Position numbers and translations under genes: made by a program. From Oscillospiraceae bacterium (lineage in GTDB: Bacteria > Bacillota > Clostridia > Oscillospirales > CAG-272), in assembly GCA_015063495.1 (NCBI GenBank), contig SVUB01000002.1:1-48206 (forward strand): a DNA stretch of 48,206 nt, written 5' to 3'. The notes under the pieces were generated by a model. The model was given only the letters and a program-made list of their open reading frames with translations. It was not told the DNA's origin and searched no databases. This document shows positions 6,321-31,518 of the stretch, one piece after another (the first letter of the stretch is position 1; every line of letters begins with the position of its first letter).

Positions 6321-7565
6321 ATGAACTCAAACAATTACAGGACGGCAAAATACGCCTCATATATAAGCAATATTTCGATGGCGGCAGCCAGCGTTCTGTC
6401 TCCGCTTCTTTTCGTGACGTTCCGTGAAATGTATGAGATATCTTATACACTTCTCGGACTTCTCGTTGTTATTAATTTCTCGGTGCAGCTCGCAGTAGAT
6501 CTTATTTTCTCTTTTTTCGGCAGGCTTTTTAATATACATAAAACGATACGCTTTATCCCGTTTATTGCGTTTGTAGGATTTCTTATATATGCACTTATGC
6601 CTACGTTTTTCCCCGGAGCAGCATATCTCTGGATAGCACTTGGAACAGTTGTTATTTCTGTTGCAGCAGGACTTGGCGAGGTTCTTACAAGTCCTCTCAT
6701 TGCCGCTATTCCCTCGGATAATCCCGAAAGAGAGATGAGTAAGCTCCATTCTATCTACGCCTGGGGAGTTGTGGGCGTAGTGCTTATAAGTACGCTTACC
6801 TTAAGGCTTATAGGAACACACAATTGGATGATTCTCGCACTTATCCTCTCGGTCATGCCGCTCGTTTCTTTTGTTATGTTCGCCACTGCAAAGCTTCCCC
6901 CAATGAGTGTGGACTCAAAGAATGAGACAGGGAAGAGAAGTGAGAAAAAAGCGGGATTTATTATGTGTATCGCATTTATATTCCTTGGCGGAGCATCCGA
7001 ATGTACTATGACGCAATGGGTTTCGAGCTTTGCCGAGAATGCGATAGGCATTCCCAAAATATGGGGAGATATATTCGGAATGGCAGCGTTTGCATTGCTG
7101 CTCGGAACGGGACGTACCCTTTACGCAAAATATGGTAAGAGCATTGGTAAGATAATGCTTTTTGGGATGCTCGGTGCGGCGGTCTGCTATATAATTTCCT
7201 CTTTTGCACTTAATTCTGCCATAGCCCTTATCGGCTGTGTTCTAACCGGATTCTTCACGTCGATGCTCTGGCCCGGAACGATAATCTACGCAGAGGAGAA
7301 TTATCCCGGACTCGGAGTTGCGGCATACGCACTTCTTGCCGCAGGAGGGGATTGCGGAGCATCAATTGCACCACAGCTTGTAGGACTAATTGCGGACAGC
7401 GTCGGGGTATCGTCGTTTGCTCTCGAAGCGTCCGAGAAGCTCGGTATAACGGCAGAACAGATAGGTATGAGAGCCGGCATCGGTATCTCGGCACTCTTTC
7501 CCATTCTCGGTGTAATTCTGGCGCTTACAATGAGAAGATATTTCGCACGGAATAAGAGAGAATAA
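6321..7565 (+). CDS. MFS transporter
   Basis: About 12 predicted TM segments in a 6+6 arrangement with a central charged loop (DSKNETGKRSEKK). Substrate unknown. Confidence 0.7.
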   Translation: MNSNNYRTAKYASYISNISMAAASVLSPLLFVTFREMYEISYTLLGLLVVINFSVQLAVDLIFSFFGRLFNIHKTIRFIPFIAFVGFLIYALMPTFFPGAAYLWIALGTVVISVAAGLGEVLTSPLIAAIPSDNPEREMSKLHSIYAWGVVGVVLISTLTLRLIGTHNWMILALILSVMPLVSFVMFATAKLPPMSVDSKNETGKRSEKKAGFIMCIAFIFLGGASECTMTQWVSSFAENAIGIPKIWGDIFGMAAFALLLGTGRTLYAKYGKSIGKIMLFGMLGAAVCYIISSFALNSAIALIGCVLTGFFTSMLWPGTIIYAEENYPGLGVAAYALLAAGGDCGASIAPQLVGLIADSVGVSSFALEASEKLGITAEQIGMRAGIGISALFPILGVILALTMRRYFARNKRE

Positions 7566-23101: not shown

Positions 23102-23797
23102 TTAAAAAGCCTTATCACAGGCGATGTCTCGGATTATTTTTGAGGCTATAAGAAGTCCTGCCGCAGCGGGAACAAATGCTGTGCTTCCGGGGACACACTC
23201 ACCTGTCTTTACAGGCTCTTCCTTTGAAAAAACGACTGTCAGATGGTTTATTCCTATCTTACGAAGAGCCACTCTTACCGTCTTTGCAAGGGGACAGTAT
23301 TCTGTTTTCTGGATGTCCGCTATTTCGAGACGGGCAGGGTCAAGCTTATTGCCTGTTCCCATAGAGGAAATTATTTCAACGCCGCTTTCCTTTGCTCTCT
23401 TTATAAGCTCAAGCTTTGATGGGACTGAATCTATCGCATCGGCGATATAATCATAGGAGGTGAGGGGGAAGGAGTCTGCATTTTCCGCACTGTAAAAAAC
23501 GTCGTGCGTTTTTATATCAAGCTCGGGGTTTATGTCGAGCAGTCTTTCTGCCATCACATCTACCTTTTTTCTGCCCACCGTTGAGTGCAGAGCTATTATC
23601 TGGCGGTTGATATTTGATAGAGAAACAACGTCATTATCAAAAATATCTATGTGACCGACGCCGCATCTTGCGAGTGCTTCGCATATATGCCCGCCGACGC
23701 CGCCGACGCCGAAAACGGCAACGTGTGAATTCTTCAGTTTTTCGGTATTATTCTCGCCAAGTACCATAGCAAGTCTTGAAAGCTCTTCTTTAATCAT
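23102..23797 (-). CDS. tcdA: tRNA threonylcarbamoyladenosine dehydratase (ThiF/MoeB-like)
   Basis: VAVFGVGGVGGHICEALARCGVGHIDIFDNDVVSLSNINRQI, 231 aa, with no rhodanese or Cys-rich C-terminus. Confidence 0.8.
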   Translation of the reverse strand: MIKEELSRLAMVLGENNTEKLKNSHVAVFGVGGVGGHICEALARCGVGHIDIFDNDVVSLSNINRQIIALHSTVGRKKVDVMAERLLDINPELDIKTHDVFYSAENADSFPLTSYDYIADAIDSVPSKLELIKRAKESGVEIISSMGTGNKLDPARLEIADIQKTEYCPLAKTVRVALRKIGINHLTVVFSKEEPVKTGECVPGSTAFVPAAAGLLIASKIIRDIACDKAF

Positions 23798-23865: not shown

Positions 23866-23898
23866 TAAAAATGCCGCACCGAAGTGCGGCATTTTTTA
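23866..23898 (-). terminator. Rho-independent terminator of thiT
   Basis: ATGCCGCAC, loop CGAA, GTGCGGCAT, with flanking A and T runs. Confidence 0.8.
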
Positions 23899-24576
23899 GA
23901 GAGGTAAGTCCTTTGCTTTTATTTGCGGAAGTCTCGAAATTATAGCCGCACAAACTGCGGTTATTACTATTTCCGGAATCATATAAAGTCCGTTATAAAT
24001 TACCGAATAGATAAGGGCAAGCAGCTCACCGTCAAACGTGCCGAGAATTTTTGCGCCCATATCGGGATCAAAGCTCTCGGTGAAGAACCACTCTGCATAT
24101 GCGCCGTAGAATATATAGCCCGATATTATATGAGCTATATATCTTGCAGCGGTTGCGATTACAGATCCAAGGACTAGTCCCTTTGTTTTACTCGCACCTT
24201 TTCTGAATACACCGCCGATTCCAAGAACCCCATAAGCAATGATATAATCAATGATGATTATGGCTATTGCAGCAATAATTGTCTGGTCACTGTCGGGAAG
24301 GAAAAAGGCGATTATTACCGAGGATTTGCCCGCCATAAGATCCATAACTATCTGGATGGCGGCATAGGTGAGAGAGGTGAACAATCCCCATTTTACACCG
24401 TATACGTATGACACTATCACAATAGGTAGCATACTTGCGAGTGTAAATCCTCCGCCGTATGGCAGATGGAGAAAGGGGATAAAGGCACATACGAGTGCCA
24501 GGGCAGTTGCCAGTGCCAGCATCACGGCACTGAAGGTGAGGCGGTGAATACCGCCGGCTTTGTTTTCATTTTTCAT
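23896..24576 (-). CDS. thiT: ECF-transporter S component for thiamine (ThiT-like)
   Basis: Six-TM S-component pattern (LPYGGGFTLASMLPI). A TPP riboswitch lies directly upstream. I moved the start to the ATG at 24576 behind GAAAGGAG, because the track ORF start at 24615 lies inside the riboswitch terminator. Confidence 0.8.
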   Translation of the reverse strand: MKNENKAGGIHRLTFSAVMLALATALALVCAFIPFLHLPYGGGFTLASMLPIVIVSYVYGVKWGLFTSLTYAAIQIVMDLMAGKSSVIIAFFLPDSDQTIIAAIAIIIIDYIIAYGVLGIGGVFRKGASKTKGLVLGSVIATAARYIAHIISGYIFYGAYAEWFFTESFDPDMGAKILGTFDGELLALIYSVIYNGLYMIPEIVITAVCAAIISRLPQIKAKDLPL

Positions 24577-24600
24577 ATGAAAACTCCTTTCTTTACATGT

Positions 24601-24745
24601 GAAAAGCAGCCGCACGAATAGACGTGTAGCTGCCTTTTAATGCAAAGATATCAAACAACTTCCTACGCCGGTATTATCCGTATCAGGTTATAAGGGTTCG
24701 GAAAACTCCGTCTCAGCCGAAGGGCACCCCCGCGTGTGACTGCGT
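24601..24745 (-). promoter_or_regulatory. TPP (THI-box) riboswitch with an intrinsic-terminator expression platform
   Basis: Minus strand reads CGCGGGGGUGCCCUUCGGCUGAGACGGAGUUUUCCGAACCCUUAUAACCUGAUACGGAUAAUACCGGCGUAGGAAG. This contains the CUGAGA, ACCUGAU and GGAUAAUACC..GCGUAGGAA cores. It is followed by GCAGCUACACG-loop-CGUGCGGCUGC-UUUU (24601-24634). Confidence 0.9.
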
Positions 24746-24769: not shown

Positions 24770-24798
24770 ATTATATCACCTTTTATATTTCTTGTCAA
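24770..24798 (-). promoter_or_regulatory. Consensus sigma-A promoter driving the TPP riboswitch and thiT
   Basis: Minus strand reads TTGACA (24793-24798)-17 nt-TATAAT (24770-24775). It is embedded in the last codons and stop of the upstream methyltransferase gene. Confidence 0.6.
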
Positions 24799-25933
24799 TG
24801 CTGTTTTTAAATTTTTCTTCCCGTGGCTTAAAATACTGATAAAGATTACACGGTATCATGCCGTTGTAGAGCTTGCGCTTCTTGTCTGCTCGTCTGCCGT
24901 AAAGGCGCTCAAATTCTTCGCAGGAAGTGAGGACGTATATCTGCCAGGGGTTAAAGTGCGAAAACGTCTTTCCCATAGTTCTGTAAAGCTCGTTTGCCTG
25001 CTGAACGGTCATCAGTCTCTCGCCATAAGGCGGATTGCAGATAATAGTGCCACGTCTATCTGGCTTCTCTATTTTTCTTGCATCTGCCTTGAATATTTTT
25101 ATTGCATCGGCAACGCCTGCACGCTTTGCATTGGCTTTTGCATATTCGAGCACTTCGGCATCAATATCCGAGGCCCAAACCTCAAAGCCACAGTCGTTTT
25201 TTATCTTCGACTTGGCTTCTTCTCTTGCTTTTTGCCAGGAATCATAGGGAAGACAGGAGATTTTCTCCCCGTCAAAGGAGCGGTGAAGCCCCGGTGCGAT
25301 TCCTTTCATTATCATTGCCGCTTCGATGGCGATCGTTCCCGAACCGCAGAAAGGATCCCAGTATAGAACGTCCTCACGAGGTCTTGACGTAAGCACGAGT
25401 GCGGCGGCAAGTGTTTCTCTTAGCGGTGCGGCACCCGAAGCCGGTCTGTATCCTCTTTTGTGAAGCGGTACACCCGAGGTGTCTATCATCATTGTTACCT
25501 TATCCTTGAAAAGGAAGAATTCTATCTGATGTTTTACTCCGGTTTCGGGCAGCATTTCGCTTCCGTAATTTTCACCAAGACGCTTTGCGACTGCTTTTTT
25601 TATAATGCTTTGACAGTCGGGCAGGGAATAAAGCGCACTCCTTATAGAATGCCCTTTTACAGGAAAAGCATCGTCAAAGTCGATATAATCCTCCCACGGC
25701 AACGAATAAGTGCCGTCAAAAAGCTCGGTGAAGCTCATTGCCTCGAAATCTCCGACTTTTATAAAGACGTGCTCTGCACAGCGTAGGTTTATGTTGGCTC
25801 TTGCGGCGTCGTTATGCGTTCCCTCAAAGGTAACTCTGCCGTCTATTGTTTCTATTCTGCGGCATCCGAGCGCATCTATCTCCTCGCCGAGAAGTTTTTC
25901 AAGTCCAAATAGGCATGTGGCAACAAATTGCAT
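24776..25933 (-). CDS. THUMP-domain class I SAM-dependent RNA methyltransferase (RlmL/UPF0020-like)
   Basis: N-terminal THUMP-like region (CLFGLEKLLGEEI), SAM-binding DPFCGSGTIAIEAA, and the catalytic NPPYGERL. Confidence 0.8.
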   Translation of the reverse strand: MQFVATCLFGLEKLLGEEIDALGCRRIETIDGRVTFEGTHNDAARANINLRCAEHVFIKVGDFEAMSFTELFDGTYSLPWEDYIDFDDAFPVKGHSIRSALYSLPDCQSIIKKAVAKRLGENYGSEMLPETGVKHQIEFFLFKDKVTMMIDTSGVPLHKRGYRPASGAAPLRETLAAALVLTSRPREDVLYWDPFCGSGTIAIEAAMIMKGIAPGLHRSFDGEKISCLPYDSWQKAREEAKSKIKNDCGFEVWASDIDAEVLEYAKANAKRAGVADAIKIFKADARKIEKPDRRGTIICNPPYGERLMTVQQANELYRTMGKTFSHFNPWQIYVLTSCEEFERLYGRRADKKRKLYNGMIPCNLYQYFKPREEKFKNSIDKKYKR

Positions 25934-25960: not shown

Positions 25961-26461
25961 TTAAACCTTATTTTGTTTTTTCTTAAATGATAGCATGATT
26001 GCGTATAGCATAAGTACAAAAAGTGTGCCAAGACACGCACCTAAAAAGTCCTTTGCTATATCAATAAGCTCCGTGGCTCTGTCACTTAACGTTTGCAGAG
26101 CTTCATCGAGAACAGCAAGCACAAGAACGGAGGAGTTGGAAAGAAGAATTCCACACCATAAGGGCTTGAGCCCGATAAGGAGTACAAGAAGCATAAATTC
26201 TGCCCCAAGTGCAGCAAATTCAAGCACATGAGCAAGGGAACGGGTGAACGCTTCCACCTCGTCTACGGTTATTTTATTGCTCTCGACCGCCCCTTTTATC
26301 GGCTCCACCTTTTCGACTATGATATTAGTTACACCTTCACTTGTGTTTGTCGATTCCTCGACGTTTTGAAGTGAGTTGCCGAAAATAAATAAAAGCGTGA
26401 GCAAAATGAGAATAGAATCTATTATTATGGCGACTATCCTCGTTTTTGACATATATGTCAT
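25961..26461 (-). CDS. VanZ-family membrane protein
   Basis: The pattern SLAHVLEFAALGAEF ... LDEALQTLSDRATELIDIAKDFLGACLG matches the VanZ-like signature. An alternative start at 26452 has better RBS spacing. Confidence 0.65.
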   Translation of the reverse strand: MTYMSKTRIVAIIIDSILILLTLLFIFGNSLQNVEESTNTSEGVTNIIVEKVEPIKGAVESNKITVDEVEAFTRSLAHVLEFAALGAEFMLLVLLIGLKPLWCGILLSNSSVLVLAVLDEALQTLSDRATELIDIAKDFLGACLGTLFVLMLYAIMLSFKKKQNKV

Positions 26462-26471
26462 TCCTCCGTTG

Positions 26472-27056
26472 TTATTTCAGTAATTTTTCGATTCCAAAGA
26501 GTCTTCTGTATTTCAGAAAATAAAGTTTTATCAGCATGGTAAGCGCTATATCGTATGCAAAAAAGGTTATGTTTCCGAGTGTAAAAAGTGCAATTATATA
26601 TGGTTTTGTTATCCCCGGTAGTGTTAGCGCGAGAAGCGAGATAAGCACAAGAGCTCCCATCGAAGCATTAAAAACTACGAGCTTTATGATCCATTCAAGC
26701 ACTCTTATTCTCGTTCTCTCGAAAATACATTTTAGCATAGGATAGTATCCTGCAAAAAATACGTATATCAGAGCAGCAAATTTCTGTGGAAGAATAAGGA
26801 AGGATATTGCTCCCGTGACGGCAAAGACGAGCCACGGGTATGCACCGCCTATTTCTATAACGGTGATTATACATATCATAGAGGCAATGCAAGCCATTGA
26901 GATGTCAAGCACCTCGATAAGCGCACCGAGATACATAATAACTACTCCAAGAGCACAGAAAAGTGCAGAGAAGGCTATCTTCTTGCTCTTTTTTATATTC
27001 CTTTTAGGCAGGATACTGCCGTAGTCAATATTTATTCTGACAGGTATCTGGGGCAA
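26472..27056 (-). CDS. Polytopic membrane protein of unknown function (about 5 TM)
   Basis: Hydrophobic segments throughout. TTG start 7 nt after GGGAGG. It lies 24 nt downstream of the J-protein stop and 10 nt upstream of the VanZ gene. No catalytic motif recognised and no His residues. Confidence 0.5.
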   Translation of the reverse strand: MPQIPVRINIDYGSILPKRNIKKSKKIAFSALFCALGVVIMYLGALIEVLDISMACIASMICIITVIEIGGAYPWLVFAVTGAISFLILPQKFAALIYVFFAGYYPMLKCIFERTRIRVLEWIIKLVVFNASMGALVLISLLALTLPGITKPYIIALFTLGNITFFAYDIALTMLIKLYFLKYRRLFGIEKLLK

Positions 27057-27080
27057 ATCTATTGCCTCCCTTCAAAGATA

Positions 27081-27695
27081 TTAACAGCAGCTTATAAGGT
27101 CGCCGCCCATACATTCGCAGCAGCAGTCGGCGCAAAGCAGAGAAGTACATATATCACAGCCCGAGTAGTACGTGCCGCCGGATGTACGTGTGTTACCCAT
27201 ATTACCGAACGAGCGCATTCTCATTCGCATCATGTTGTATTCCGCATTTGAGGGGTCCATAGTGCAGGCCGTATCGAAATAGCGAGAAGCATCGAGGCTG
27301 TTTCCTTTTTTGAGCTCTATACAACCCATAAGGAAGTGCCATTCTGCCGCACGGTCGTTTGCGTCGGTTTCTGAGAGCAGTCTTTCGGCTTCGGCAATAT
27401 CACCGTTGTTTATCAGGACTCTTATTCTGTTAAATTTAGGATTTCCCGTTCCCGAGCTTGAGTTCGGTCCGTACGAGCTGTAAGAGCCTTGGGAGGATCC
27501 TGCACCCGAGCGGATTTTCTGAATCTCCTCGTATGCTGCATTTACTTCCTTCATTTTCTCACTTGCAAGGTCTGCAAGGTCGCTGTCACGGTATTTATCG
27601 GGGTGATATTTTCTTGCAAGGTCACGGTATGCCTTTTTTATTTCTTCGTCGCTTGCGCTCGGTGATACACCGAGTATCTTATATGGATCGGTCAT
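27081..27695 (-). CDS. J-domain protein with a G/S linker, a TPR-like segment and a Cys-rich C-terminal tail
   Basis: J domain [26 protein letters not shown] (HPD present). The tail is [26 protein letters not shown]. It lacks the DnaJ zinc-finger (CxxCxGxG) and C-terminal substrate domains. Confidence 0.85.
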
Positions 27696-28588
27696 TACAT
27701 TTCTCCGTTTTCATCAGTTGTCTTTATTTCGGTGCCACCAAGGAGAACCGCATCGGTCATCCTCGGCATTCCTTCGGTCAGAACGTTGCGTATAAGGCCC
27801 TCAAGGTCGCGTCTGCCGTCAAAATCAAGCAGATCGAAAGCAGACACCGCTTTACCGAGGACCGAGAGCATAGCCGCTTTTATATCGAGCTTTTTCTCTC
27901 TGTCAAGCTCTGCTCCGTCAAAAAGAAGGATAAAGGGATTGTAGCTTCCGGTCTTACGGTCCTTTTCTATATCGTCAAGAGCGTCGATAAGGTATATCCA
28001 GCGCCCGATAGCGGTGCCTATCGTCGCTCCGATGCGTTCTTTTTCTCCCTCTTCAATGCCAATTGTCATGATATCTGACATGAGCGCTCCAAAGAGTGCC
28101 GCAGGTTTATCTGCCGAGCGAGTTTTTTCTCTTTCGGTGCACCGAAGTGAGCTCAGATGCTCTTTTACACTTTTATCAAGCTCCAAGTAGCCTTTTTTGG
28201 CCTTTTTATACGAGTGAGAAAAGAGTGATTTTAAGAGAAGTGCGCCTATTTTCTTGAATCCTTTTTCATCGGTAACGTCATCAGCTATCTTATATTGAGT
28301 GAGAATGGCGGAGACGTGTGCCGAAAAGAGCAGGGCATCGTTTTTCTTCATCACGAGTCTCTTTTTCAGGGGATGAAGAAAGCAGCGCTTCTTATGGAAT
28401 TCCGGGATCTCGCCCGTCAGAGCAAGTCTTGCAAGAACGAGAAAGGTGATATCGTAGCTGAGCGTCATTCGGGAGAGAACGCCTATCTCGTCCCTCATAG
28501 CACGGCAAAGACCGCAGTATGCAGCTCTGTAATACTGATTTTCTATCATTTTAAGCTCAGGCGTATAAGGCTTTACGTATCCGAACAC
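27695..28588 (-). CDS. DUF5685-like protein with two Asp-rich motifs and an N-terminal CxxC...CxxH site
   Basis: (V)[26 protein letters not shown] resembles what I recall as the DUF5685 N-terminus. The likely start is GTG at 28588, 5 nt after GGGAGGTG (the track ORF starts at 28606). The stop overlaps the J-protein ATG (TAATG). Confidence 0.65.
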
Positions 28589-28682
28589 ACTCTCACCTCC
28601 CATCATCTATTTTATTCTACTACGTATTATAAGCTTTTACATCAATTATTTGTAAACTTTGAGGCAATATCTGTAAATTTTT

Positions 28683-28710
28683 GAGGGAGGCTCCTCTGAG
28701 CCTCCCCTAT
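28683..28710 (-). terminator. Rho-independent terminator of the EamA gene
   Basis: GGGAGGCTC, loop, GAGCCTCCC. The U-run is modest on the minus strand. Confidence 0.55.
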
Positions 28711-29626: not shown

Positions 29627-29818
29627 AATACGATCCTTTGTTTTGAATGTACGTTAAATATTAATAAGTCATTAAAAATTTCAAAATATGCTTGAAATAC
29701 GGGAGAATATAGGTTATCATATATTATATATTCTTCCAAAAATCTATAATATTATAAATAAAAAAGCTCCAAATGTCAATAGTAAAGTGGCATTTGAAAA
29801 CAGAGGAAAGGAGACAAA

Positions 29819-30493
29819 ATGTTTGACATACTTGTGGTTGAAGACGACAGAAGCACACGGCTTCTTATGGAAACGGTACTAAGGCAAGGGGGATATAATC
29901 CCATACCTGCGAGTAATGGGCTTGAAGCGCTCGAAATAATGGACCATAAGCATATAGACCTTGTGCTCCTTGACGTTATGATGCCCGGCATGGATGGATA
30001 CGAATTTGCAAAAACGCTCAGAGAGGGGGGATCGTCTCTCCCTATCCTTATGGTCACGGCAAAGGAATCCCCTGCCGACAAAAAGCTCGGATTTCTTTCG
30101 GGAACGGACGATTATATGGTAAAGCCTGTGGACGAGGAGGAGATGCTTTTACGTATTGCGGCGCTTCTTCGCCGTTCGAGGATATCTGCAGAGCATAAGA
30201 TAAACGTTGGTGGAACAGTTCTCGATTACGATCGCCTCACGGTAAGCTGTATGGGTACCGAAACAGCTCTCCCACCAAAGGAATTTATGCTTTTATATAA
30301 GCTGCTCTCCTATCAGGGAAAGATATTTACAAGAGCCGCTATAATGGACGAGATATGGGATCTTGACAGTGAGTCGGATCCTCATACAGTTGACGTTCAT
30401 ATCAACCGTTTACGTGAAAAATTCGGTGAAAATCCGGATTTTGAGATAGTTACGGTAAGAGGTCTCGGATATAAGGCGGTAAGAAGATTATGA
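29819..30493 (+). CDS. OmpR-family response regulator
   Basis: Receiver domain (ILVVEDD.., DLVLLDVMMPGMDG, MVTAK) and a winged-helix output (LPPKEFMLLYKLL.., VRGLGYK). Confidence 0.92.
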   Translation: MFDILVVEDDRSTRLLMETVLRQGGYNPIPASNGLEALEIMDHKHIDLVLLDVMMPGMDGYEFAKTLREGGSSLPILMVTAKESPADKKLGFLSGTDDYMVKPVDEEEMLLRIAALLRRSRISAEHKINVGGTVLDYDRLTVSCMGTETALPPKEFMLLYKLLSYQGKIFTRAAIMDEIWDLDSESDPHTVDVHINRLREKFGENPDFEIVTVRGLGYKAVRRL

Positions 30494-31518
30494 ACCGTTT
30501 CAAAACTCTTCGAAATAAGGCGACTCTGCTCGTTATTGCAATAATGGCGGTCTCGGCGCTGCTTACGGGTGCTGCACTTATTTTTCTTATACATATAGGA
30601 GCTATTCCCACAGCCTTCAGAGCAAGAGTGTCGCTTATTCCGATAACTGTATGTGTGGGAAGCCTTATAGGCGCAGTCCTTGCCGCCTTTGCCATGCGAT
30701 ATTTCATAAAACCTCTTGACGAACTCGTTGCAGCGACAAAGAAGATAGCTGAGGGGGATTTCTCGGTAAGAGTCACCGAGCGCAAAAGCCTTGGGGAGAT
30801 AGCGACTCTTGTCCGTAATTTTAACAGTATGGCACAGGAGCTTGAGGGCACGGAGATGTTCAGAAGTGATTTTGTGAACAATTTTTCCCACGAATTCAAG
30901 ACTCCCATCGTCTCTATCAGAGGTTTTGCAAAGCAACTTAAGAGCGATGCCCTTTCAGAGGATGAGAGAAGGAAATATGCCGAGATAATAGCGGATGAGT
31001 GTGAGCGCCTTTCGAATATGTCGACAAACGTGCTTCTTCTCTCCAAGCTTCAGAATCTCGAGCTTATTACAGATAAATCAGCTTATTCTCTTGATGAGCA
31101 GATTCGCAGATCCGTACTTCTCTTTGCAAAGGATTGGGAAGCGAAAAATATCGATCTTGATATAGACCTTGAGGAGATAGATTATACGGGCAACGAGGAG
31201 ATAATGAGCCACGTTTGGGTGAATCTTATCGGAAATGCCGTTAAATACACTCCCGAGGGCGGACGTATATCCGTCAGAGCTATAAAAAAAGCTGACGAGA
31301 TAATAGTTAGAGTTTCCGATAACGGAATAGGAATGAGCAGGGCGGTGATGGAACGCATATTCGATAAGTTTTATCAGGGGGATGGCTCTCATACGGGTAG
31401 CGGAAACGGTCTCGGTCTGCCTCTTGTAAAGCGTATAATCGAGCTTTGCGGCGGAAGACTGACAGTAGAAAGCGAGCTTGGTGCAGGCTCGGAATTTTCC
31501 GTGTATATTCCTTTGTAA
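30490..31518 (+). CDS. Sensor histidine kinase with a minimal extracytoplasmic loop (intramembrane-sensing type)
   Basis: Two closely spaced TMs, a HAMP domain (PLDELVAATKKIAEGDF), H-box FSHEFKTPI, and the N, G1 and G2 boxes (NAVKYTP, DNGIGM, GNGLGL). ATGA overlap with the RR gene. Confidence 0.9.
   Translation: MNRFKTLRNKATLLVIAIMAVSALLTGAALIFLIHIGAIPTAFRARVSLIPITVCVGSLIGAVLAAFAMRYFIKPLDELVAATKKIAEGDFSVRVTERKSLGEIATLVRNFNSMAQELEGTEMFRSDFVNNFSHEFKTPIVSIRGFAKQLKSDALSEDERRKYAEIIADECERLSNMSTNVLLLSKLQNLELITDKSAYSLDEQIRRSVLLFAKDWEAKNIDLDIDLEEIDYTGNEEIMSHVWVNLIGNAVKYTPEGGRISVRAIKKADEIIVRVSDNGIGMSRAVMERIFDKFYQGDGSHTGSGNGLGLPLVKRIIELCGGRLTVESELGAGSEFSVYIPL

Follow-up and report, generated by a model that had tools for sequence, protein, structure and literature searches.

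A three-gene Clostridial cassette pairs a DUF5685 protein of predicted isoprenoid-synthase-like fold with a cysteine-tailed J-protein

The trans-isoprenyl diphosphate synthase (IDS)-like prenyltransferases characterised so far all modify the Trp of small peptides, which is recognised by a Gln just before the SARM, and one of them, PalQ, needs its acceptor residue at the extreme C-terminus (PMC13290415). ComQ/ComX, PalQ/PalX, ChrPC and Ord1 have in common the isoprenoid synthase superfamily fold and two Asp-rich motifs. For ComQ, PalQ and ChrPC, the enzyme gene directly precedes a second gene, often with an overlap, and the product of this second gene has a conserved C-terminal motif. S-prenylation of a bacterium's own proteins is not known to us.

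Lipid-carrying J-proteins are known from eukaryotes: DNAJC5, a cysteine-string protein, is palmitoylated, and Ydj1/DNAJA1 is farnesylated at a CaaX motif. The -CC end of Rab proteins is, similarly, a geranylgeranylation motif. Bacteria put J domains at the membrane, as in DjlA, and HscB is a J-protein specialised for a metal-cluster client. Zn- or Fe-binding modules occur in J-proteins such as DnaJ (zinc fingers), Dph4 and the chloroplast CDJ3-5, and most cytosolic bacterial Cys-rich motifs bind metals.

The window analysed here is a 48,206-nt stretch of an Oscillospiraceae genome (contig SVUB01000002.1). Its minus strand carries the gene for a DUF5685 protein (27695..28606; maximal ORF, 303 aa), followed by those for a J-protein (27081..27695; 204 aa), a small polytopic membrane protein, memB (26472..27056; 194 aa, with a TTG start and the RBS GGGAGG ahead of it), a VanZ-like membrane protein (25961..26461; 166 aa; PF04892) and an RlmL/THUMP-type RNA methyltransferase (24776..25933; 385 aa). 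The stop codon of DUF5685 shares base 27695 with the start codon of the J-protein gene (TAATG), and gaps of 24 nt (J-protein to memB), 10 nt (memB to VanZ) and 27 nt (VanZ to methyltransferase) separate the remaining genes. The initial annotation had described four closely packed minus-strand genes with this overlap and these gaps, and the ORF coordinates agree with it exactly; the THUMP methyltransferase that it placed 27 nt beyond the fourth gene is borne out by matches to Pfam UPF0020, RlmL_1st and THUMP. The identities that it proposed for the DUF5685-like protein (E 2.7e-74), the Cys-tailed J-protein (DnaJ, E 5e-18) and the VanZ-like protein (PF04892, 37.0 vs 30.1 bits, E 6e-9; NF037970, 44.6 vs 20 bits) hold as well, and the DUF5685 accession is to be corrected from PF18935 to PF18937. 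The true start of DUF5685 is probably the GTG at 28588, because the RBS GGAGGTG (28600-28594) precedes it and the homologues start with MFGYVKPY.

The locus was compared with 82 related loci of different species, with a DUF5685 identity down to 32%, drawn from a collection with one genome per species, in which at least 591 stretches match. In all 81 intact loci, the J-protein gene follows directly 3' of DUF5685 on the same strand; the median gap is -4 nt, 44 of 79 pairs overlap, and translational coupling is the usual arrangement. The pairing of DUF5685 with a Cys-tailed J-protein thus extends beyond close relatives and beyond chance, so that the hypothesis of the initial annotation clearly survives one refuting condition that it had set, a pair confined to close relatives. 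A functional link between the two proteins is very likely. The sole locus without a J-protein gene (L014) has a truncated DUF5685 match followed by AT-rich, unrelated-looking DNA; it is probably a chimeric contig and no true exception to the pairing. The memB gene comes directly after the J-protein gene in 73 of the 82 loci (median gap 12 nt) and is missing from some lineages that retain the pair.

The four-gene module of the initial annotation is rejected, as conservation of the other three genes does not extend to VanZ or the THUMP methyltransferase; of these three, memB itself is frequent and not universal. Among the compared loci, L001, the closest relative, is alone in having a VanZ homologue after memB, and the methyltransferase occurs in one other locus only, upstream (L079). 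The flanks vary, the largest shared family being found downstream in 8/65 loci (YicC-like) and upstream in 5/73, and no fourth conserved gene was found across the compared loci. VanZ and the methyltransferase are thus outside the conserved module, VanZ being a passenger of this particular gene string. Past the methyltransferase, the next gene is served by a separate promoter and a TPP riboswitch; the local transcription unit probably ends with the methyltransferase.

The unit is a self-contained, separately regulated three-gene Clostridial cassette. The region ahead of DUF5685 (28626..28656, minus strand), as read from the sequence, contains a dyad, TTTACA (28656-28651), N9, TGTAAA (28641-28636), and a TATAAT -10 box (28631-28626) located 19 nt past TTTACA. 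The cassette carries the conserved dyad consensus TTTACAA-N8-TTGTAAA, and a kindred dyad, TTTACAA-N7/8-TTG(T/C)A(A/T), is present 5' of DUF5685 in many species: the exact TTTACAA was observed in 40 of 82 loci, for 2.6 expected. The dyad matches no operator known to us, a literature search by its sequence gave primers only, and a search for it elsewhere in the window was not informative with regard to the regulator.

In the data examined, the cassette is confined to Clostridia, with most loci coming from human and animal gut species. A profile search with the DUF5685 alignment matched 5,819 clusters (50% identity) at E ≤ 0.001 and 1,655 at 1e-30. DUF5685 has been reported in C. difficile R20291. 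A full-text literature search yielded no paper on the module and a single appearance of DUF5685, in a domain list; nothing relevant was found for J-domain, cysteine-rich and Clostridia together. As for a defence or phage origin, PADLOC gave no matches, and PHROG matched only the J domain.

The DUF5685 protein matches PF18937 over nearly the whole profile (positions 2-270 of 272; 250.4 bits, cut-off 26.7), as do all 20 aligned homologues. It has no TM segments and is predicted to be soluble and all-alpha. Among the 50 PDB matches listed by Foldseek for its AF2 model (pLDDT 89.5), all are isoprenoid-synthase-fold prenyl-diphosphate enzymes, and nearly all of these are trans-polyprenyl diphosphate synthases. 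The best matches have TM scores of 0.52-0.58 (E 6.4e-4, probability 1.00), most of those listed have a probability of 0.9-1.0, and the RMSD is 5.5-6.4 Å. The B. subtilis HepS/HepT heterodimer (9kp1_B) is among the matches listed, and the Trp prenyltransferase Ord1 is a weak one, at rank 41 of the 50 listed (TM 0.33). At the level of the predicted structure, and with moderate TM scores, the fold is trans-isoprenyl-diphosphate-synthase-like.

The protein has two Asp-rich motifs. The first, D109-D-x-x-D-E114 (28265..28282, minus strand), ends the helix 90-113 and has D109, D110, D113 and E114 invariant; the second, D208-A-x-D-D212-x3-D216 (27959..27985, minus strand), comes four helices later, where helix 187-211 ends, with D208, D211, D212 and D216 invariant. 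Invariance was judged on 20 homologues with 42-79% identity. The Asp motifs noticed in the initial annotation are thereby confirmed, and AF2 and Foldseek back its isoprenoid-synthase-type reading at the fold level. By helix order, rather than by a residue-level alignment, the two motifs would correspond to the FARM on helix D and to the SARM or NSE/DTE on helix H. In the positions ahead of the second motif, DUF5685 has an invariant I204 and Y205 and no Gln. Also invariant is a Cys3His site (28373..28516, minus strand) made up of C31-x2-C34 (28505-28516), within helix 20-41, and C75-x2-H78 (28373-28384), within the beta-hairpin 70-86.

A sequence homology between DUF5685 and isoprenyl diphosphate synthases was not found. 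An hmmsearch of the PDB with DUF5685 found no IDS at E up to 10, a Pfam scan of the 20 members with E up to 1 brought up neither polyprenyl_synt nor any further family, and hhalign of the DUF5685 profile with FPPS, the latter realigned from the PDB sequences 1rqj, 3p8r and 3ts7, gave a probability of 0.4%, the sole match pairing the first motif with the FPPS SARM. The fetched loci contain no polyprenyl synthase that could serve as a local comparator. No domain fusions were seen among the best 150 representatives, nearly every one having a length of about 280-335 aa.

The J-protein begins with a J domain (aa 1-62, 27510-27695, minus strand; PF00226, 65.4 bits, cut-off 27.8), in which H31, P32 and D33 of the HPD motif are invariant among 24 orthologues. 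Only these residues match DnaJ models, far under the equivalog cut-offs (61.6 vs 377 bits), and the sequence places the protein in class C, with an N-terminal J domain and no DnaJ-type client-binding domains. A Gly/Ser-rich linker connects the J domain to a second domain (aa 88-155, 27231-27434, minus strand) with the conserved pattern AEWxFLxG...DPxNxEY. This domain may be called 'TPR-like' at most, because all of its matches to TPR models are under the gathering score (best TPR_2, 21.3 vs 27 bits).

The protein terminates in a cysteine-string tail (aa 175-204, 27084-27173, minus strand), with 10 Cys among the last 30 residues. In the same orthologues, C180, C183 and C191 never vary, and conservation reaches at least 90% for C188, C193 and C195, the six forming a CxxC-x4-CxxC-C-x-C spacing. 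Tails contain 6-12 Cys; 64 of 77 tails have Cys as their final residue, and 54 of the 77 end with -CC. In divergent orthologues the spacing drifts, while the Cys richness and the hydrophobic spacers are kept. Trp is absent from the window's tail and from the shared consensus, a few divergent orthologues having one. In three loci (L083, L084 and L009), a J-less paralog, composed of the TPR-like domain and a Cys tail, is inserted directly after DUF5685; the tie to DUF5685 is therefore through the TPR-Cys half of the protein and not through the J domain. The tails of these paralogs are rich in Cys, Asp, Glu and Gly (e.g., CCCEVCGEGGGECCAECCCEGCCENCDGCDCDCG).

The third protein, memB, has invariant charged residues in its predicted membrane helices and belongs to no family in Pfam, NCBIfam, PADLOC or PHROG. 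Its AF2 model (pLDDT 74) has no significant fold match in the PDB; the sole match with a TM score near 0.5 is the ECF S component 4hzu_S (0.45/0.51; E 3.1, probability 0.47). A kinship to the ThiT encoded in the window was dropped, hhalign giving 3.5%.

Like ComQ, PalQ and ChrPC, DUF5685 is encoded directly ahead of a protein with a conserved C-terminal tail, which is present in 81 of 81 intact loci and would be its substrate, and, as for PalQ, the putative acceptor is at the very C-terminus. The isoprenoid synthase fold, here predicted, and two Asp-rich motifs, here equated by helix order, are shared with these enzymes and with Ord1. However, in comparisons with FPPS sequences and with solved structures, DUF5685 shows no detectable similarity, and it has the additional Cys3His site. 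Its partner is a 200-aa folded J-domain co-chaperone instead of a small secreted peptide, with 6-12 Cys and no Trp in the tail, and the cassette comprises no secretion, kinase or RiPP genes. Because the Trp acceptor and the Trp-recognising Gln before the SARM are both absent, DUF5685 is not assigned to this group and is only said to possibly work like it.

With DNAJC5 and Ydj1/DNAJA1, the J-protein shares its layout, a J domain with HPD at the N-terminus and, beyond it, a cysteine string or a Cys at the C-terminus, and the idea that a lipidated tail, putative here, puts Hsp70 activity on the membrane. This is an analogy only, as there is no homology beyond the J domain, and the DHHC palmitoyltransferases and the alpha/beta farnesyltransferase are unrelated to DUF5685. 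Furthermore, the bacterial tail is C-terminal, has acidic residues and has a partly fixed Cys spacing. In hscB-hscA with IscU, cbpA-cbpM and DjlA, a class-C J-protein is likewise genetically coupled to a dedicated partner. Here, on the contrary, the partner is an enzyme-like protein and not a scaffold, inhibitor or transmembrane anchor, the cassette encodes no dedicated Hsp70, and the distribution in the data examined is Clostridial. The DnaJ zinc finger, the SlyD tail and the metallothioneins resemble the tail in their dense Cys with CxxC and CC motifs and, for the paralog tails, in their acidic and Gly residues; in DnaJ and SlyD, the metal site is also joined to a protein of the chaperone system. 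The J-protein tail differs in that it lacks the CxxCxGxG repeat pattern of DnaJ, has no His and is obligately linked to an isoprenoid-synthase-like protein. To our knowledge, no metal-tail chaperone has such a link.

The proposal of the initial annotation, a tail either lipid-modified or metal-loaded that tethers DnaK to the membrane, is compatible with all of these findings. Our tentative preference is for a ComQ/PalQ-like DUF5685 that prenylates the tail cysteines of the J-protein, S-prenylation as the chemistry itself being a best guess that holds a minority of the probability. DUF5685 would bind a prenyl diphosphate via Mg2+ on its Asp motifs and pass the prenyl group to the J-protein encoded next to it. 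The acceptor would be the tail cysteines, especially the C-terminal Cys or Cys-Cys, instead of a tryptophan. The lipidated tail would bring the J domain, and therefore DnaK, to the membrane, possibly beside memB. The terminal Cys, the -CC ends, the replacement of the Trp-recognising Gln by I204/Y205 and the usual presence of a membrane protein as the third gene suggest this chemistry. Against it count the missing sequence kinship with IDS, the four-ligand Cys3His site, more typical of a structural than of a catalytic metal site, and the lineages without memB; the conserved CxxC-type spacing and the Cys/Asp/Glu/Gly paralog tails also look more like a metal-thiolate than a lipid anchor. It is doubtful that, more broadly, Clostridia S-prenylate an endogenous cytosolic protein, with DUF5685 as a cysteine-directed branch of the trans-IDS-like prenyltransferases that lipidates the J-protein tail and takes DnaK to the membrane beside memB, under a dedicated regulator.

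As the main alternative, the tail could be a metal-thiolate domain (Zn, Fe-S or metallothionein-like). The J-protein would then be dedicated to metal delivery or maturation and, by means of DnaK, would load or assemble DUF5685, the client and business end of the operon, at its Cys3His site; HscB/IscU and the SlyD metal-binding tail are models for this, and by analogy with them it is possible, if somewhat doubtful. The fixed spacing of the six tail Cys is well accounted for in this way, as are the acidic, Gly-rich, metallothionein-like tails of the J-less paralogs, the invariant C31, C34, C75 and H78, and a translational coupling typical of stoichiometric partners. Left unexplained are the constant isoprenoid-synthase-like fold of the partner with its intact Asp-rich motifs, the near-universal C-terminal Cys and the membrane protein as the usual third gene, and the drift of the Cys spacing in divergent orthologues, where Cys richness and hydrophobic spacers stay, fits less well.

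It is unlikely that an isoprenoid lipid or diphosphate is made or remodelled by DUF5685 and then bound, flipped or imported by memB. In this reading, the role of the J-protein would be limited to assembling or regulating the membrane-proximal enzyme complex via DnaK; the TPR-like domain and the Cys tail would form a subunit without catalysis of its own, like the small subunits found in heteromeric prenyl diphosphate synthases. The predicted fold and Asp motifs would agree with such an enzyme, HepS/HepT is among the fold matches, and the charged residues in the memB membrane helices are expected of a transporter or an enzyme. The one memB match of appreciable TM score is an ECF S component, but it is not significant, and hhalign of memB with the ThiT of the window gives 3.5%; moreover, memB is absent from several lineages keeping the pair, and DUF5685, judged by eye, is without the Lys/Arg-rich IPP-binding signatures (DDxxDxxxxRRG, Gln before SARM). 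Equally improbable is a DUF5685 that is no isoprenoid enzyme, its fold match being a generic helical-bundle likeness and its Asp and Cys serving, for example, a redox or metal-dependent action on the Cys tail. The TM scores of just 0.5-0.6, the RMSD of 5.5-6.4 Å and the lack of sequence homology to any characterised family would fit this; however, none of the 50 listed PDB matches falls outside the isoprenoid-synthase-fold prenyl-diphosphate enzymes, most of them at high probability, and the acidic motifs lie, by helix order, at the helix ends that bear the catalytic motifs in that fold.

The cassette suggests an undescribed bacterial way to modify, load or anchor a chaperone cofactor. If tail prenylation is true, this would be the first S-prenylation of an endogenous bacterial protein, and DUF5685 would be the first trans-IDS-like prenyltransferase with a cysteine acceptor and a folded protein as its substrate. 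The cassette would represent a convergent bacterial version of the lipid-anchored Hsp70 co-chaperones (CSP/DNAJC5, Ydj1), with a possible use for enzymatic protein lipidation. If the tail binds metal, a new DnaK-dependent metallochaperone pathway would be at hand. Either way, what had been a set of 'hypothetical proteins' becomes, through the strict pairing, the J-less paralog and the conserved operator, a system that can be tested directly, in a large protein family and a cassette that is widespread yet unstudied.

On the minus strand of the window, the DUF5685 gene (maximal ORF 27695-28606) and four further genes lie very close together: a J-protein gene (27081-27695), the memB gene for a small polytopic membrane protein (26472-27056), a VanZ gene (25961-26461) and an RlmL/THUMP-type methyltransferase gene (24776-25933). 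In Pfam and NCBIfam scans all were assigned except memB, for which no family was found; the DUF5685 protein matches PF18937 (E 2.7e-74), and not PF18935, the accession given in the initial annotation. In the same scans, the J-protein shows a DnaJ domain (E 5e-18), while all of its TPR matches are sub-threshold. The packing is exactly as first described: base 27695 is common to the DUF5685 and J-protein genes (TAATG), and the next gaps measure 24, 10 and 27 nt. The maximal DUF5685 ORF begins at the ATG at 28606. The true start is probably the GTG at 28588, giving a protein of 297 aa, because a GGAGGTG Shine-Dalgarno sequence precedes this codon and the homologues begin with MFGYVKPY. A simple hydropathy scan detected several membrane segments each in memB and VanZ, and none in DUF5685 or the J-protein.

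DUF5685 proteins are numerous, forming 5,819 clusters when grouped at 50% identity (E at most 0.001), and they consist essentially of this one domain: none of the best 150 is a fusion. When a one-genome-per-species collection was scanned with the DUF5685 alignment, at least 591 DUF5685-encoding stretches came up, of which the best 80, with identities from 73% down to 32%, were taken. Four further loci came from contig look-ups; two of them (L081 and L082) joined the best 80 to give 82 loci for the HMM search, and gene content was read from the translated loci with phmmer and HMM searches. DUF5685 was found in 82/82 loci, and in 81 of them the J-protein gene comes directly after it in the same orientation. 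Conservation of the pair beyond close relatives, a check set beforehand, is thus borne out. In the sole locus without a J gene, L014 (6813-7455), the DUF5685 match is truncated (profile positions 1-270) and gives way to AT-rich, seemingly unrelated DNA, so that this is probably a chimeric contig. A look-up in the opposite direction, begun with a J-protein homologue, led once more to an upstream DUF5685. The spacing is tight: the median gap from DUF5685 to the J gene is -4 nt, with an overlap in 44 of 79 pairs, and that from the J gene to memB is 12 nt. The DUF5685-J-protein linkage is very strong.

The third gene is memB in 73/82 loci, several of the misses being contig ends. Four loci keep DUF5685 and the J-protein without memB: L003 (7545-7666), L075 (7472-7522), L059 and L069. 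In L003 and L075 the gene is truly absent, the next gene being D-Ala-D-Ala carboxypeptidase-like and YicC-like, respectively. The J-protein tails of these four loci are more divergent, of a shorter type without GGDLIxCC. VanZ follows the cassette only in the closest relative (L001), and the THUMP methyltransferase was seen once among the loci, there upstream. The flanking genes vary: the biggest shared downstream family, YicC-like, occurs in 8/65 loci and the biggest upstream family in 5/73. Conservation thus covers three genes as a cassette, of which the first two form an obligate core. The four-gene module of the initial annotation is rejected for the 82 loci: its tight DUF5685/J-protein/memB part is conserved, but VanZ falls outside. 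In the window (23102-23797, minus strand) and in five of the closer relatives (L002, L005, L011, L018 and L020), the cassette is followed, a few kb further on, by a TcdA-like gene of the ThiF family; this looks like residual synteny and not a functional link.

The J-protein orthologues keep an invariant HPD, a Gly/Ser-rich linker, a TPR-like domain (AEWxFLxG...DPxNxEY) and the tail, in agreement with the J domain and Cys-packed C-terminus recognized at the outset. The last 35 residues hold 6-12 Cys (median 10). C180, C183 and C191 are invariant, and conservation reaches at least 90% at C188, C193 and C195. The final residue is Cys in 64/77 tails, 54 of which end in -CC. In a few loci, an extra gene is inserted between DUF5685 and the J gene (L083 5611-5961, equal to L084 5611-5961, and L009 at about 6930-7433). 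It encodes only a TPR-like segment and a tail very rich in Cys, Asp, Glu and Gly (e.g., ...DCCCEVCGEGGGECCAECCCEGCCENCDGCDCDCG), without a J domain, and in L083 there is a 4-nt overlap with the end of DUF5685. This J-less paralog adjoining DUF5685 shows that DUF5685 is coupled to the TPR-Cys half, the J domain being an added output module.

The membrane protein memB has roughly 160-210 aa (194 aa in the window) and about six helices. Eight of its charged or polar positions are invariant: E48, D51, E68, K92, K109, E113, K125 and D169. The AF2 model is mediocre (pLDDT 74) and gave no significant PDB match; the sole TM near 0.5 is with an ECF S component, at E 3.1. An hhalign comparison of memB with the ThiT of the window was negative.

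Among 20 DUF5685 homologues (42-79% identity), C31-x2-C34, C75 and H78 are invariant, as are the acidic residues D109, D110, D113, E114, D208, D211, D212 and D216. A confident AlphaFold2 model (pLDDT 89.5, pTM 0.88) built from this alignment is all-alpha. The 50 matches listed by Foldseek against the PDB are all prenyl-diphosphate enzymes of the isoprenoid-synthase fold, nearly all of them trans-polyprenyl diphosphate synthases. E. coli octaprenyl-PP synthase leads (TM 0.52-0.58, E from 6e-4), followed by many FPPS, GGPPS and related enzymes, and the weaker matches include Ord1, a tryptophan prenyltransferase. In the model, each acidic motif marks the end of a helix (90-113 and 187-211), the second of these coming four helices after the first; going by their order, they would correspond to helices D and H of the isoprenoid-synthase fold, the bearers of the catalytic Asp motifs. 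The spacing of D208, D212 and D216 (i, i+4, i+8) resembles that of an NSE/DTE triad. The isoprenoid-synthase-type character initially suggested is supported at the level of this predicted fold, but it is not matched at the sequence level: no relation to isoprenyl diphosphate synthases appeared in a PDB hmmsearch or a permissive Pfam scan, and when PDB sequences were used to rebuild an FPPS alignment for hhalign, the probability of a match was 0.4%. DUF5685 is therefore described as isoprenoid-synthase-like by predicted fold and motif placement, family membership not being demonstrated.

The cassette has a conserved, putative control region of its own. In 40/82 loci, against 2.6 expected, the 200 nt preceding DUF5685 contain an exact TTTACAA on the sense strand, and these heptamers cluster 60-100 nt before the start codon. 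The usual layout is TTTACAA(A/T), N7-8, TTG(C/T)A(T/A) as the -35 box, N17 and TATGAT. In four loci, the site forms a perfect 22-bp palindrome, TTTACAA-N8-TTGTAAA. Dyad sites are present in L030 (235-256), L041 (5923-5944), L071 (3795-3816), L055 (2582-2603) and about 35 other loci; they overlap or abut the -35 box, in a register to the -35/-10 boxes that differs between lineages. The composite dyad pattern has 30 matches in about 925 kb, about 24 of which are the site upstream of DUF5685. The window carries TTTACA-N9-TGTAAA (28656-28636, minus strand) with TATAAT 19 nt after TTTACA, the whole region spanning 28626-28656. To our knowledge, the dyad TTTACAA-N8-TTGTAAA matches no known operator, and no regulator gene was found in the cassette or nearby. 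In two Lutispora genomes (L076 1010-1030, L061 1080-1100), the DNA separating obg from a small ORF (1245-1538) contains a palindrome of similar form, TTTACAATTTTCACATTGTA, which may be a second target of the putative regulator; the small ORF is possibly YhbY-like, judging without a family scan.

A GC-rich 9-bp hairpin, GGGAGGCTC-agag-GAGCCTCCC (28685-28706, minus strand), separates the EamA stop, which it follows directly, from the DUF5685 promoter; it has no clean minus-strand T-tract and was not called by the terminator scan. Downstream of the THUMP gene, the ThiT thiamine-transporter gene (23896-24615, minus strand) has its own TPP riboswitch (RF00059, 24642-24741, minus strand, 62.8 bits) and a 12/12 consensus sigma-70 promoter with a TG extension (24798-24770, minus strand) that overlaps the 3' end of the methyltransferase gene. 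Given the hairpin and the separate ThiT signals, the transcription unit at this locus probably extends from DUF5685 through the THUMP gene. A second 12/12 consensus promoter (29751-29779, minus strand) is located upstream of the EamA transporter gene. A divergent plus-strand pair (29819-30493 and 30490-31518, overlapping by 4 nt) looks, from its translation without a family scan, like an OmpR-type response regulator and a histidine kinase.

An isoprenoid-synthase-like protein is strictly coupled genetically to a protein ending in a string of cysteines, with the J domain as the output and the membrane protein as the usual third partner. The closest working precedent is found in the trans-IDS-like peptide prenyltransferases ComQ/ComX, PalQ/PalX and ChrPC. 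These belong to the isoprenoid synthase superfamily, and those characterised all act on Trp, which is recognised by a Gln before the second Asp-rich motif (SARM); PalQ requires its acceptor at the extreme C-terminus (2026 review, PMC13290415). For ComQ/ComX, the substrate gene adjoins the enzyme gene (PMC4008528). DUF5685, on the contrary, lacks this Gln and has I204 and Y205 instead, and the partner tail has a terminal Cys where the known substrates have Trp. On these grounds, we tentatively favour S-prenylation: DUF5685 would modify the tail cysteines in a Mg2+-dependent reaction, and the prenylated tail would anchor the J domain, hence DnaK, at the membrane.

Nearly as likely in our view, and likewise less probable than not, is the main rival: the tail would form a metal-thiolate domain, and DUF5685 would have in the J-protein a dedicated metallochaperone or assembly factor. 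In favour of this are the CxxC-type spacing, which is fixed, the metallothionein-like tails of the J-less paralog and the Cys3His site of DUF5685, whereas the isoprenoid-like fold is left unexplained. Less likely is that DUF5685 produces a lipid and is served by memB, or that its function is non-isoprenoid. S-prenylation and metal binding are not mutually exclusive, as known protein prenyltransferases alkylate cysteine through zinc-thiolate activation.

Overall, the gene arrangement of the initial annotation stands and its interpretation is supported in part, very strongly for the DUF5685-J linkage, while its Pfam accession, start codon and four-gene extent (three instead) do not stand. A defence or phage element was rejected for the module in searches of the corresponding families. 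Among its parts, PF18937, PF00226 and VanZ are catalogued families; for the module as a unit, no description was found in full-text literature searches. We rate it as akin to two known kinds, specialised J-protein operons and trans-IDS-like enzyme-substrate pairs. The module is widespread, strictly conserved and unstudied, and the hypothesis is concrete and cheaply testable. If true, S-prenylation of the tail would represent a new kind of bacterial protein lipidation.
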